Shown piece by piece: positions 37,147-40,866 of a stretch of DNA of 64,000 nucleotides (positions within the stretch are counted from its first letter, which is position 1; every line of letters starts with the position of its first letter). The stretch is from Elusimicrobiota bacterium (GTDB lineage: Bacteria; Elusimicrobiota; Elusimicrobia; UBA1565; UBA9628), in assembly GCA_016212855.1 (NCBI GenBank), contig JACRDP010000020.1:3920-67919 (forward strand), written 5' to 3'. The notes below the pieces were generated by a model. The model had not been told where the DNA came from and did no database searches. It saw only the letters and a program-made list of their open reading frames with translations. Position numbers and translations under genes: made by a program.

Positions 37147-37742
37147 CAGCCGTGGGCCAGGGGCGCGTTGGGGAAAAGCTCGTCTTCGAGAATGCCGCAC
37201 CAGATCTGGATGACCGTGATGTGCGCTTCCTGGATGCGCGCCGTCGAATCGGACGGAATGCGCACGCAGTGATCGCACAGGTTCTTGAGCTTGCCGCCGG
37301 AGCGGCCGGTGAGGCCGATCACGGTGAGGCCGAGCTCGCGCGCGGCCGCGGCGGCCTTGAGCACGTTCTTGGAGTTGCCCGAAGTCGAGATCGCGACCGC
37401 GACGTCGCCGGCGCGGCCCAGGGCGCGCAGAGGGCGCTCGAAGACGTATTCGAAGCCGAAGTCGTTGGCGATCGAGGTGAGGTCGCCCTGATTTGCGGCC
37501 AAAGAAATGGCCGGGAGTCCCGGCCGATTGCGCCGGTAGCGGCCGGTGAGCTCGTCGGCGAAATTCGAGGCGTCGCAAGAGGAGCCGCCGTTGCCGAAGG
37601 AGAGGAGCTTCCCGCCGTTGCGGTACGCGCGCAGGAGGTCCTTGGCCGCCGCGTCGATGACCGGGGCGAGCTTGGCCGTGGCCGTCAAAGTCTTGGCCGA
37701 GTCCTTCAGCTGCGCTTGAATCGTCTTCTTGAAATCAGACAT
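37146..37742 (-). CDS. gmhA: Phosphoheptose isomerase
   Basis: FGNGGS, IANDFG, ISTSGNS, ARIQEAH. Confidence 0.92.
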   Translation of the reverse strand: MSDFKKTIQAQLKDSAKTLTATAKLAPVIDAAAKDLLRAYRNGGKLLSFGNGGSSCDASNFADELTGRYRRNRPGLPAISLAANQGDLTSIANDFGFEYVFERPLRALGRAGDVAVAISTSGNSKNVLKAAAAARELGLTVIGLTGRSGGKLKNLCDHCVRIPSDSTARIQEAHITVIQIWCGILEDELFPNAPLAHG

Positions 37743-39096
37743 TCGCTGGCTCCTTCTTGTCGAGCAGTCCGGTCTTTTCGATGAAATGCGTGTCGAAGTC
37801 GCCTGCCATGAACACGGGGTGGGCGACGACCTTCGCGTGCATGCCCGCGGTCGTCTTCACCCCGCTGATCTTGAGCTCGCCGAGCGCGCGCAGCGAGCGC
37901 CGCAGGGCGGAGGGCCGGTCGCCGGCGGAGATGATCAGCTTGGCGATCATGCTGTCGTAGTAGCTGGGGATGGTATAGCCGGCGTAGACGTGGGTGTCGA
38001 CGCGCACGCCCGCGCCGCCGGGAAGCTCGATGTTCTCGATGCGTCCCGGGCAGGGCATGAAGTTGTTGTCGGGGTCCTCGGCGTTGATGCGGTGCTCGAT
38101 GGCGTGGCAGCGGATTTCGCTGGCGCGTGTCTGATCGAACGGCAGTTTTTCGCCGGCCGCGACCCTGATCATCAGCTCCATGAGGTCCACGCCCGCGACG
38201 AGCTCGGTGACCGGGTGCTCGACCTGCAGACGGGCGTTGACCTCGATGAAGTAGAAGCGCCCATCCTGGAACAGGAATTCGACCGTGCCGACGCTTGAAT
38301 AATTGGCCGCTTTGGCCAATCGGATAGCGGCCGCCTGCATGTCGCGGCGGATCTCCGGCGTCAGGGCGGGCGAGGGCGATTCCTCGACGAGCTTCTGGTG
38401 GCGTCTTTGAACCGTGCAGTCCCGTTCCGGGAACGCCACGACGTTTCCGTGCTTATCCGCGATGATCTGAATTTCAACGTGCCGGGGACGTTCCAGCAAT
38501 TTTTCGATGAACACCGAGCCGTCGCCGAACGCGGCCTTCGCCTCGGTGGCGGCGGCCTCGAGCTGGGGCTTGAGCTCGGCGGGGGTGCGGACGATGCGCA
38601 TGCCCTTGCCGCCGCCGCCGGCCGACGCCTTGATGAGGACGGGATAGCCGATCGCGGCGATCTCCGCCGGATCGACGGCGGAGATGTCGCCTTTCGTGCC
38701 GGGCACGCAGGGCACGTTCGCGGCCGTCGCGACGGCCTTGCCCGCGCTCTTGAAGCCGAGCTTGCGGCTGGCCTCGGGGGGCGGGCCGATGAAGGTGATG
38801 CCGCGCTTAGCGCACAGTTCGGAGAAATCGGCGTTTTCGGACAGGAAGCCGTAGCCGGGGTGAATGGCGTCCGCGCCGGTGATCTTGGCCGCGGAGAGCA
38901 CGGCCTCCTGGTCGAGATAGGACAGCTTGGACGGGCCGGGACCGATGCAGACGGCCTCGTCGGCCATCGCCACGTGCCGGGATTCTCGGTCCGCTTCGGA
39001 GTAGACGGCGACGGTCTTGACGCCCATCTCGCGCGCGGCGCGGATGACGCGCACGGCGATCTCGGAGCGGTTGGCGATCAGAATTTTCTTGAACAT
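37735..39096 (-). CDS. accC: Biotin carboxylase
   Basis: KILIANRSEIA, HPGYGFLSEN, GGGGKGMR, RDCTVQRRHQK, EVNARLQVEHPVTE, YYDSMIAKL. Confidence 0.96.
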   Translation of the reverse strand: MFKKILIANRSEIAVRVIRAAREMGVKTVAVYSEADRESRHVAMADEAVCIGPGPSKLSYLDQEAVLSAAKITGADAIHPGYGFLSENADFSELCAKRGITFIGPPPEASRKLGFKSAGKAVATAANVPCVPGTKGDISAVDPAEIAAIGYPVLIKASAGGGGKGMRIVRTPAELKPQLEAAATEAKAAFGDGSVFIEKLLERPRHVEIQIIADKHGNVVAFPERDCTVQRRHQKLVEESPSPALTPEIRRDMQAAAIRLAKAANYSSVGTVEFLFQDGRFYFIEVNARLQVEHPVTELVAGVDLMELMIRVAAGEKLPFDQTRASEIRCHAIEHRINAEDPDNNFMPCPGRIENIELPGGAGVRVDTHVYAGYTIPSYYDSMIAKLIISAGDRPSALRRSLRALGELKISGVKTTAGMHAKVVAHPVFMAGDFDTHFIEKTGLLDKKEPANV

Positions 39097-39103
39097 GGAT
39101 GCC

Positions 39104-40471
39104 TCATTGGGGAGGGGCGTTGAGCTTGCGGCGGATGGTCTCGATGTAGGAGTGATCCTGCGGGCGCGTGCAAAGCTGATCGGCGCGGTTGGCGTCGGCG
39201 AGCGCCTCGCCGGGGCGGCTGAGCGTGATGTAGGCTTCGGAGCGGGCGAGCAGGATTTCGCACTGGTCCGCCGGAGAGATGTTCGGGAAGGCCAGCATCT
39301 GGGCGAACTGGTCGAGCGCGAGGTCCGGCTTATGCAGGGCGTTCTTGTAGGTGTCGGCCAGGATCGCGTGCAGGTGGTAAAGGCTCTTGAGCGACAGGTT
39401 GGACGGGTACACGCGCGACAGCTCGATGGCCGCGGCGCACTGGCGTTCCGTGTCATTCGGGGATTTGCGGTAGTAAGCGGCTTCGCACAGATAGCCGCGC
39501 GCCATCGGGTCGCGGGGGTTGACGGTGGCCGCGGCCTGGGCCAGCACGAGGCCCAGGTCGGCGTTGTTCTTGTCGAAGGCCTCTTCGACCTTCTTCATGA
39601 GCGCCCAGCTGTACGGGCGTACCCACTTGCGGTTCTCATCGACGAAGAGGACGCGGTCGACGCGCGGTTCGGAGCCCGCGATGTTGAGCTCGTATTTGAG
39701 CAGCATGGCGCCCGGCTCGGAATGTTCGATTTGCAGGCCGGACCAAGTCCAGGTCGAGGTGTCGCGCGTGGCGACGAATTCCTCGAGCGTGCAGTACTTG
39801 CGCGCCGAGTCGGAGAACTGGGCGTAGGCGGCCGCGTAGTCGCGCGCACGCAGGGCGTCGAGGTACTTGACGGCGGCGGCCCGGACCGCGTTTTCGGGCT
39901 TACTGTTCTCGCCGACGTACCAGGTCCCGATGAGGCCCGCGAGGACGGCGATGGTCGCGAAGCCGGCGGTCAGAACCCGGCGCAGCGGGCCGAGCCAGCG
40001 CGGGGGCTTCGGGCGGTCGTCGACGGGAGGCAAAGACGGCGCCCAGAGGTCGCCGGACACGGCGGGAGAGGCGAACGGGTCCTGAGCCTGGCGGCCGGCG
40101 AAGGGCAGGGCCGGGCCCGGGGCTTTGAGCGGCGCGCCCTGAGGGGCGCCGGGCTCGGAGGCCTTGAGCTTGGCGGCGGGCAGGGCCGCGGGGCCCGCCG
40201 GCGCGTTCTCGTTTTTTATGCGCTTGACGACCGTGGCGGGGATCGGTTCCTTCGTCTCGCCGGGCACCGCCGTCGGGGGCGGCGGTGCGACAACCGGGCC
40301 CAGTTCCGAGATCGGGTTGCCGCACTTGTCGCAGTAATTCTTCGCCAGCGAATTCTGGAAGCCGCAGCCCCCGCACACGCGCGCGTTCTTGCCGCCGCAT
40401 TTGGCGCACTGCGAGAGCGGGGTCGCCGAGGCGGCCCCGCACTGCGTGCACAAAATCGCGGCGTTGGACAT
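39104..40471 (-). CDS. Double zinc-ribbon membrane protein with Pro-rich linker, TM helix and C-terminal TPR-like region
   Basis: CTQC/CAKC/CGGC/CDKC; TM VLTAGFATIAVLAGLIGTWY; YLDALRARDYAAAY. Confidence 0.75.
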   Translation of the reverse strand: MSNAAILCTQCGAASATPLSQCAKCGGKNARVCGGCGFQNSLAKNYCDKCGNPISELGPVVAPPPPTAVPGETKEPIPATVVKRIKNENAPAGPAALPAAKLKASEPGAPQGAPLKAPGPALPFAGRQAQDPFASPAVSGDLWAPSLPPVDDRPKPPRWLGPLRRVLTAGFATIAVLAGLIGTWYVGENSKPENAVRAAAVKYLDALRARDYAAAYAQFSDSARKYCTLEEFVATRDTSTWTWSGLQIEHSEPGAMLLKYELNIAGSEPRVDRVLFVDENRKWVRPYSWALMKKVEEAFDKNNADLGLVLAQAAATVNPRDPMARGYLCEAAYYRKSPNDTERQCAAAIELSRVYPSNLSLKSLYHLHAILADTYKNALHKPDLALDQFAQMLAFPNISPADQCEILLARSEAYITLSRPGEALADANRADQLCTRPQDHSYIETIRRKLNAPPQ

Positions 40472-40866
40472 CAGCGCGACTCGAGAAGGAGCAACGGCTG
40501 GCCGTACTCCACGGCCTGGCCCGCGTCGATGAAGAGCTTGGCCACGCGGCCGCCTTGCGGCGCGAGCACGGGTTTGGAGACGCCGGAGCCGCCGACGATG
40601 TAGCCGATGGGCTGGCCCGCGGCGATCTCCACGCCCTCTTCGGTCTTGCGCGCCTTGCCGGGCTCGCTCCATTGAAAAATGCCCACGCCGTCGCTGACGA
40701 CGGGCGTGAAGCGTCCCGAAGGCATCGCGGGCGCGGACAAGGTCGCGGGGTCGTTCGCGCCGAGGGCGGTGAGCGAGAAGCCCTTGCCATCCTTGCGGTA
40801 GACGACCTCGGCGAGGTCGGCGGTTTTCATCCAGTCGGCGACGGCTTTGACGGCGGAAGAGTGCAT
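40471..40866 (-). CDS. BCCP/AccB-like biotinyl-domain protein lacking the EAMKM biotinylation motif
   Basis: VVSDGVGIFQWS, AGQPIGYI, APQGGRV, GQAVEYGQPLLLL align to BCCP; VGGSGVS replaces EAMKM. Confidence 0.78.
   Translation of the reverse strand: MHSSAVKAVADWMKTADLAEVVYRKDGKGFSLTALGANDPATLSAPAMPSGRFTPVVSDGVGIFQWSEPGKARKTEEGVEIAAGQPIGYIVGGSGVSKPVLAPQGGRVAKLFIDAGQAVEYGQPLLLLESR

Follow-up and report, generated by a model that had tools for sequence, protein, structure and literature searches.

A stretch of 64,000 nucleotides from an Elusimicrobiota bacterium (assembly GCA_016212855.1, contig JACRDP010000020.1, positions 3,920 to 67,919 of the forward strand; hereafter the window, to whose full length all coordinates refer) carries the gene row mtap-cdd-bccpL-membrane gene-accC-gmhA-hldE, in which all genes are co-oriented and all junctions are overlaps or gaps of 2–7 nt. 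The gene studied here, bccpL, lies upstream of accC, the gene for biotin carboxylase, with one gene between them. It encodes a paralogue of AccB, the biotin carboxyl carrier protein (BCCP) of acetyl-CoA carboxylase, that lacks the biotinyl lysine and retains the BCCP fold. Acetyl-CoA carboxylase catalyzes the committed step of fatty-acid synthesis and is a target of antibiotics and herbicides. Published non-catalytic look-alikes of BCCP all come from the plastids of plants and algae, and whether they act as glue or as brake is still argued. The features of the locus are the following.

40471..40866 (including the stop codon), minus strand: bccpL, 131-residue AccB paralogue without the biotinyl lysine, identified by its open reading frame (ORF), Pfam and NCBIfam matches, fold and family
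40570..40599, minus strand: hairpin IVGGSGVSKP of bccpL, residues 90–99, replacing I-x-E-A-M-K-M; turn at 92–96, offset lysine K98
40762..40866, minus strand: N-terminal alpha/beta/beta domain of bccpL, residues 1–35, with conserved W12, D17, L18 and E20
39104..40471, minus strand: 455-residue membrane protein with zinc ribbon, transmembrane (TM) helix and tetratricopeptide repeats (TPR); its ATG overlaps the bccpL stop codon (TGATG)
37735..39096, minus strand: accC, biotin carboxylase (TIGR00514)
40869..41369, minus strand: cdd, cytidine deaminase, 2 nt upstream of bccpL
41369..42250, minus strand: mtap, methylthioadenosine phosphorylase, first gene of the conserved row; its stop codon overlaps the cdd ATG
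37146..37742, minus strand: gmhA, sedoheptulose-7-phosphate isomerase, with an 8-nt overlap with the end of accC
36673..37146, minus strand: hldE domain II type heptose-1-phosphate adenylyltransferase

Much of this arrangement had been reported in a preliminary description of the window, namely an intact, co-oriented biotin carboxylase separated from an AccB-like gene by a single zinc-ribbon/TM/TPR gene, with lipopolysaccharide heptose genes beyond. ORFs and domain matches bear this out, accC being intact with 632.3 bits on TIGR00514 (cut-off 626.5). The AccB-like gene had been described there as encoding a 131-residue protein of AccB architecture with IVGGSGVSKP instead of EAMKM at about 40568–40608, and the hairpin was indeed found inside that interval, at 40570–40599.

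The bccpL protein passed the cut-off of the Pfam domain Biotin_lipoyl narrowly (23.5 bits on residues 74–127, cut-off 22.1) and stayed far below that of the BCCP equivalog TIGR00531 (21.9 bits, cut-off 115.2). Its AlphaFold2 model, with a mean predicted local distance difference test (pLDDT) of 85.1, comprises a helix at residues 3–15 and strands at 18–24 and 29–34, followed by an Ala/Pro linker modelled with low confidence; the biotinyl barrel, which bears the thumb, spans 53–131 with pLDDT above 95. The three-part architecture of AccB (N-domain, Ala/Pro linker and thumbed barrel) is thus present, in a protein of 131 residues versus roughly 150–175 for the canonical copies of relatives, as judged from open frames. 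The nearest solved structures in Foldseek searches were E. coli BCCP 1BDO, the top match (template modelling score 0.88 on the target, root-mean-square deviation 1.2 Å), and 4HR7_G (template modelling score 0.91), and a profile of the bccpL family searched against PDB sequences gave 4HR7_B as its best match, with 66.7 bits and both domains aligned. In the N-domain, residues W12, D17 and L18 are invariant in 33 orthologues, and D17 and L18 are also invariant across the wider family.

At the hairpin, the biotin-accepting tip (A/V)-M-K-(M/L) is not found in bccpL, which reads GGSGVSK; nor does the tip carry the lysine of lipoyl or GcvH hairpins (D-K-A or S-V-K-A). Alignment with hmmalign placed S94 in the column of the canonical lysine. 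A gapless reading of IVGGSGVSKPV against IIEAMKIMKDV, the sequence of an accC-linked AccB, places G95 at the acceptor position and K98 opposite the second, non-acceptor lysine. In the AlphaFold2 model K98 belongs to the strand after the turn (residues 92–96) and not to the hairpin tip.

Conservation of bccpL was assessed in 41 genomes of the genus and order, in 53 phylum-wide loci, and in a pool of 234 distinct family sequences derived from the 41 order-level orthologues, these 53 loci, 120 close proteins and 41 representatives. An orthologue was present in 41 of the 41 genomes, and the frame was intact in all of these and in all 53 phylum-wide loci. The hairpin contained M-K in none of the 41 order-level orthologues and A/T-M-K in none of the 234 family sequences, in which the canonical acceptor column is occupied by Ser (129), Lys (29), Ala (26) or Gly (18) and the preceding position is Gly in 193. 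The offset lysine is common within the genus (Lys in 21 of 25 sequences, Arg in 3, Thr in 1), and neither of the order's other two families, f2 and f3, has a conserved Lys at this position. The gene also occurs at loci L123 and L124 of two uncultured Elusimicrobium genomes. When 151 Elusimicrobiota genomes were surveyed with the family profile, a two-peaked distribution was obtained: the window genome and 59 of 59 genomes of five families (f1–f5) scored 127–163 bits, and the best match in the remaining 91 genomes did not exceed 93.8 bits. Within the genus (n = 25), the median ratio of non-synonymous to synonymous substitution rates (dN/dS) was 0.35 for bccpL, with values of 0.30 for the barrel, 0.37 for the N-domain and 0.50 for the linker. 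The preliminary description had called for a check of whether lysine loss is conserved among orthologues under purifying selection, and both the absence of A/T-M-K from the family and the dN/dS of about 0.35 answer in the affirmative. It had also considered that orthologues might retain MKM, this copy being a decaying one; none of the 41 has M-K. Biotinylation on the offset lysine, the other outcome that it held against its own proposal, finds little encouragement in a residue that is not conserved outside the genus, and that bccpL would be unbiotinylated is a conclusion drawn from sequence.

A lysine-free AccB raises the question of the true carrier. The window belongs to a 2.5-Mb assembly of 30 contigs, estimated as 72.7% complete, in which no canonical accB was found, by tblastn either. 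The tblastn search gave no pnp gene in it, and canonical accB adjoins pnp in five of five loci read in relatives. Since the genome lacks both of these neighbouring genes, one missing region probably explains both absences, and accB was probably lost from view in the missing quarter of the genome. Elsewhere a canonical accB was detected in 35 of 41 relatives (best E ≤2.6e-27) and, at E ≤1e-18, in 150 of 151 genomes of the phylum, the sole exception being the genome of the window. The genome search for a canonical accB proposed in the preliminary description thus succeeded in relatives and phylum-wide, and gave nothing in the 72.7%-complete assembly itself. The only other biotinyl- or lipoyl-type domains of this genome are a pair in a 604-residue frame, probably an E2 subunit, and one in an H-protein-like ORF on contig C23, which contains ESVKA. 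A BirA homologue is encoded (110.5 bits, cut-off 83.1).

As to the remaining subunits, accC is the only biotin carboxylase gene found in the window genome, and neither accA nor accD gave a match above the cut-off here or in any of 30 relatives searched. Two genes of this genome encode fused carboxyltransferases of the MmdA/PccB type, of about 540 residues each (C4:65885-67513, minus strand; C24:107890-109497, plus strand), which scored 738.9 and 321.5 bits on TIGR01117, both below its cut-off. Judged from gene content, the carboxylase of this order seems to be composed of AccC, AccB and a fused beta-type transferase.

The number and location of accB genes across the phylum bear on the origin of bccpL. 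One canonical accB was found in 61 of 67 genomes of the class of the window, and two in 78 of 83 genomes of other classes. In six two-copy genomes of those other classes, the copy linked to pnp reads VEAMKVMNEIK at the hairpin, and the second copy, located in an accB-accC-gmhA-hldE row, reads IE(A/T)MKI(M/I)K(D/E)(V/M). With these accC-linked copies bccpL shares both its place in the row and an N-domain signature, T-D-(L/I)-x-E, that is common to the Lys-less family and to accC-linked AccB: its T-D-(L/I) part occurs in six of six accC-linked copies of other classes, in two of five of the same class, and in none of 14 pnp-linked copies. Unlike bccpL, the accC-linked copies of other classes have hairpins of the IEAMKIMKDV type, score 92–110 bits on TIGR00531 and reach at most 94 bits on the family profile, versus 127–163 for the family. 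The Lys-less gene lies directly against accC in 15 of the 53 phylum-wide and 3 of the 41 order-level loci, the zinc-ribbon gene being interposed elsewhere. Five genomes of families f6, f7, f9 and f10, in the same class as the window, carry accC-linked copies reading AMK (two), CMK (one) or AMQ (two), and intermediate states thus survive in the phylum, from AMK through AMQ to the fully remodelled hairpin. Both AMQ genomes belong to one other family of this class; their accC-linked AccB (L176, 1579-1797; L177, 1501-1740) is otherwise canonical, with 75–81 bits on TIGR00531, and reads VEAMQVPKDV, the acceptor Lys having simply been exchanged for Gln.

In phylogenetic trees the Lys-less sequences clustered together with strong support (99/97; 100/95), at the end of a long branch. 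As the trees do not settle where this branch joins the canonical BCCPs, orthology rests on synteny and the N-domain signature; in an approximately unbiased (AU) test a single clade of all accC-linked copies was not rejected (p = 0.285), which is a non-rejection only. Mainly from synteny, we conclude that the lysine would have disappeared from the operon-encoded AccB in the lineage ancestral to families f1–f5, the pnp-linked paralogue having remained the carrier.

Whether bccpL could still engage the biotin carboxylase was addressed by modelling its complex with AccC. An ipSAE of 0.70 was obtained in each of three runs, compared with 0.00 for the best of three controls. In calibration on known cases, 116 of 157 solved complexes but only 2 of 215 mismatched pairs attained this mark, a calibration that is only rough here because our own alignments were used. 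At least 92% of contacts were shared between runs, and the partner had a pLDDT of at least 70. The predicted interface involves residues 34, 49–53, 59, 64–73 and 98 of AccC and residues 60–63, 92–96 and 118–123 of bccpL, the latter including the most conserved positions of the family, V61, G62, V119, Y121 and G122. In the model, bccpL sits on AccC.

Combined, these observations lead us to favor, with modest confidence, the view that bccpL is a non-catalytic AccB-like subunit and partner of AccC, a positional descendant of the accC-linked accB that works in a BADC-like way and has a separate origin. According to this proposal, bccpL and AccC would be synthesized from a single compact operon, and the barrel of bccpL would dock on AccC in the manner of E. 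coli BCCP on its biotin carboxylase. The N-domain of bccpL would associate with those of the pnp-linked canonical AccB, which would be the true carrier, and the working carboxylase would consist of AccC, bccpL, biotinylated AccB and the fused MmdA/PccB-type carboxyltransferase. The Lys-less copy would hold a static structural place, carboxybiotin being carried only by the other AccB. A role of the N-domain in assembly is in line with the available part of a preprint (PMC11160672), in which the first 30 residues of E. coli BCCP are predicted to be alpha/beta/beta and are proposed to oligomerize and tether BCCPs; the N-domain of bccpL shares this form and a conserved motif with the E. coli N-terminus as described there. 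The proposal of the preliminary description, a bacterial carboxylase subunit with a regulatory or assembly function, thus holds as far as a conserved Lys-less paralogue is concerned that is encoded with accC, coexists with canonical accB in relatives and can be modelled on AccC.

Several observations weigh against this proposal. Canonical accB was not seen in the genome of the window, and its coexistence with bccpL there is deduced from relatives. The score of the complex may reflect memory of, or likeness to, the solved E. coli complex of biotin carboxylase and BCCP, 4HR7; in the model the N-domain makes no confident contact with monomeric AccC; and the lack of biotin and any binding by bccpL rest on prediction, not experiment. 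The dN/dS of bccpL (0.35) is above those of its neighbours cdd (0.23) and mtap (0.13). A Lys is found at the canonical column in 29 of the 234 members, in hairpins such as EVGKDF, EMNKT and ETGK; these members may still take up biotin, and the family is perhaps not uniformly biotin-free. One member of the EVGKDF group (L108) has Arg at that column. Finally, the free tree fails to join the family with accC-linked AMK copies, placing it on a long branch off a poorly resolved backbone.

An alternative to the structural role is that bccpL acts as a brake or decoy that occupies the BCCP site of AccC in competition with holo-AccB and thereby lowers malonyl-CoA synthesis. The predicted AccC interface is the same face as that used by the BCCP barrel, hairpin included, an unbiotinylated bccpL could carry no carboxybiotin, and an inhibitory model of this kind, the first proposed for plant BADC, is described in the available part of PMC11926652. 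However, expression from the same packed operon as AccC would fix the ratio of the inhibitor to the enzyme that it blocks, an arrangement that suits a built-in subunit over a conditional inhibitor. The gene, moreover, was retained in every one of the 59 genomes sampled from five families, and no regulatory input is visible. Because of this fixed co-expression with AccC, glue is favored over brake, and we regard the latter as unlikely.

A second alternative assigns to bccpL some other biotin-independent role of AccB, either self-control of the operon through the N-domain or action as cytoplasmic partner of the zinc-ribbon protein, tying the carboxylase to the membrane. E. coli AccB controls the expression of its own operon through its N-domain, and in bccpL this domain is conserved (W12, D17, L18). 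A link to the zinc-ribbon protein could be read into the overlap of the bccpL stop codon with the start of its gene in this lineage, and in the available part of PMC11160672 the zinc domain of E. coli AccD touches both biotin carboxylase and BCCP. Against it, the zinc-ribbon gene is absent from loci that keep the Lys-less gene, 15 of the 53 phylum-wide and 3 of the 41 order-level ones, and we find such a role decidedly unlikely.

It is very unlikely, in our judgment, that bccpL is still a carrier, biotinylated on K98 in the genus or, in the EVGKDF, EMNKT and ETGK sublineages, on the Lys of the canonical column. As far as is known, biotinylation does not strictly depend on the Met residues to either side of the lysine; 21 of the 25 genus sequences have K98, 29 of the 234 have a canonical-column Lys, and BirA is encoded in the genome. 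But K98 lies in the strand past the turn, opposite the second, non-acceptor lysine of AMKIMKDV, is replaced by Arg in three sequences of the genus and Thr in one, and is unconserved in families f2 and f3. The acceptor column, in turn, is mostly Ser, Ala or Gly, with Arg in one EVGKDF member, and a separate canonical AccB is available in 150 of the 151 genomes. Decay of an accB copy heading for loss, which the weak TIGR00531 score (21.9 bits) and a dN/dS above that of the neighbours might suggest, is scarcely credible and was rejected on grounds of conservation, given intact frames in the 41 and 53 loci, dN/dS of 0.30–0.37 in the folded domains, a confident barrel and presence in 59 of 59 genomes.

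The closest parallel to the favored reading of bccpL as a structural partner of AccC is BADC of plants and algae, likewise a BCCP paralogue that has no biotinyl lysine and occurs alongside a genuine BCCP. The available parts of PMC11926652 and PMC11889953 describe BADC as binding both biotin carboxylase and BCCP, as a 'glue' in one model and an inhibitor in another, and in that of PMC11926652 it is called 'unique to the plant htACCase'; for bccpL, contact with AccC is a prediction. Unlike BADC, bccpL is bacterial and, by synteny and the N-domain signature, would have arisen within Elusimicrobiota from the accC-linked accB, which makes shared descent with BADC unlikely. Its family has a T-G-x hairpin and not that of BADC, and its carboxyltransferase partner would be of the fused MmdA/PccB type and not AccA/AccD. 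In its working bccpL would resemble BADC, and its origin is very probably separate. Compared with E. coli AccB (1BDO, 4HR7, TIGR00531), bccpL has the same three-part architecture, thumbed barrel and position upstream of accC, together with a predicted contact with biotin carboxylase; unlike it, bccpL lacks A-M-K, is shorter and scores 21.9 bits where TIGR00531 requires 115.2.

Among other bacteria, Eremiobacterota also carry, directly upstream of accC, a full-length AccB-like gene without the lysine. In contrast to bccpL, these copies form a separate long branch and have a different hairpin, for which reasons the loss in Eremiobacterota looks like an event independent of that in Elusimicrobiota. 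Their hairpin, seen at loci L127, L137, L141, L142 and L145 (match 5001-5402 in each), is (I/V)EALG(I/M)R(N/T)(P/A)V, for instance IEALGIRNPV. More generally, among the 109 highest-ranking representatives that lie outside the family, 28 lack the canonical [ML]-K at the acceptor column; a few of these are fragments or multi-domain proteins, and the query profile favors such matches. Their hairpins include AMS, AMR, TLN, ALN, SMR, SMH, SMG and ALQ, and P0175, P0182, P0183, P0186-P0188, P0197, P0208, P0220, P0225, P0229, P0232, P0241, P0248, P0249, P0263 and P0264 are among them. Actinobacterial acyl-CoA carboxylase epsilon subunits, which are not known to be BCCP-like, resemble the proposed bccpL in being small and non-catalytic and in helping to assemble a carboxylase with a fused beta-type carboxyltransferase. 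They are mentioned as bacterial 'glue' in the available part of PMC11926652.

Literature searches for a Lys-less bacterial BCCP returned only plant and algal work, in agreement with the earlier statement that such a protein is undescribed in bacteria; subscription journals lay outside their coverage, so that a report could exist. The bccpL family shows deep conservation and very probably arose independently; being small, soluble and expressible in E. coli, it lends itself to asking what AccB does without biotin. The names under which these proteins are found in databases, 'biotin carboxyl carrier protein' and 'acetyl-CoA carboxylase biotin carboxyl carrier protein subunit', are probably wrong.

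A broader hypothesis, quite unlikely to hold in all its parts jointly, is that the structural job of AccB at biotin carboxylase is separable from its job as a carrier and has been split between two paralogues. The operon copy would then be an obligate scaffold of a four-part carboxylase (AccC, scaffold, carrier AccB and fused carboxyltransferase), and the same split would have occurred independently in Eremiobacterota, in other bacteria and, as BADC, in plastids. The zinc-ribbon protein, which would be translationally coupled to the scaffold in the lineage of the window, might in that case hold the carboxylase at the inner membrane in the manner of plastid CTI proteins.

The 455-residue protein encoded between bccpL and accC consists of a double zinc ribbon with eight invariant Cys, a disordered Pro/Ala linker (residues 59–146), a TM helix (160–189), an alpha+beta domain (192–285) and a TPR region (289–449) containing four invariant Cys, the pattern of which suggests disulfides outside the cytoplasm. 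Among relatives the gene encodes 399–749 residues, with a 135-residue remnant in L068. The idea, put forward in the preliminary description, that bccpL is linked to envelope status through this protein found no support, the gene being lineage-specific and missing from the 15 phylum-wide and 3 order-level loci that keep the Lys-less gene directly against accC. The heptose genes gmhA and hldE also follow accC where the accC-linked AccB retains AMK. A functional tie of bccpL to the heptose genes or to the membrane protein was set aside on these grounds, namely the occurrence of the accC-gmhA-hldE row with an AMK AccB and the frequent absence of the membrane-protein gene.

On the other side of bccpL, open frames of 281–302 residues in several relatives raised the possibility of a bccpL-Cdd fusion. 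This was rejected because the cdd and bccpL matches occupy different frames in the relative locus L024, and likewise in the window; the extra length of these frames is GC-rich read-through ahead of the start codon. The cdd ORF of the window carries a basic C-terminal tail of about 27 residues (40869-40950, minus strand), which is not shared at the sequence level: of the 40 order-level loci that gave a cdd match, 38 have it end at residues 130–139 of 166.

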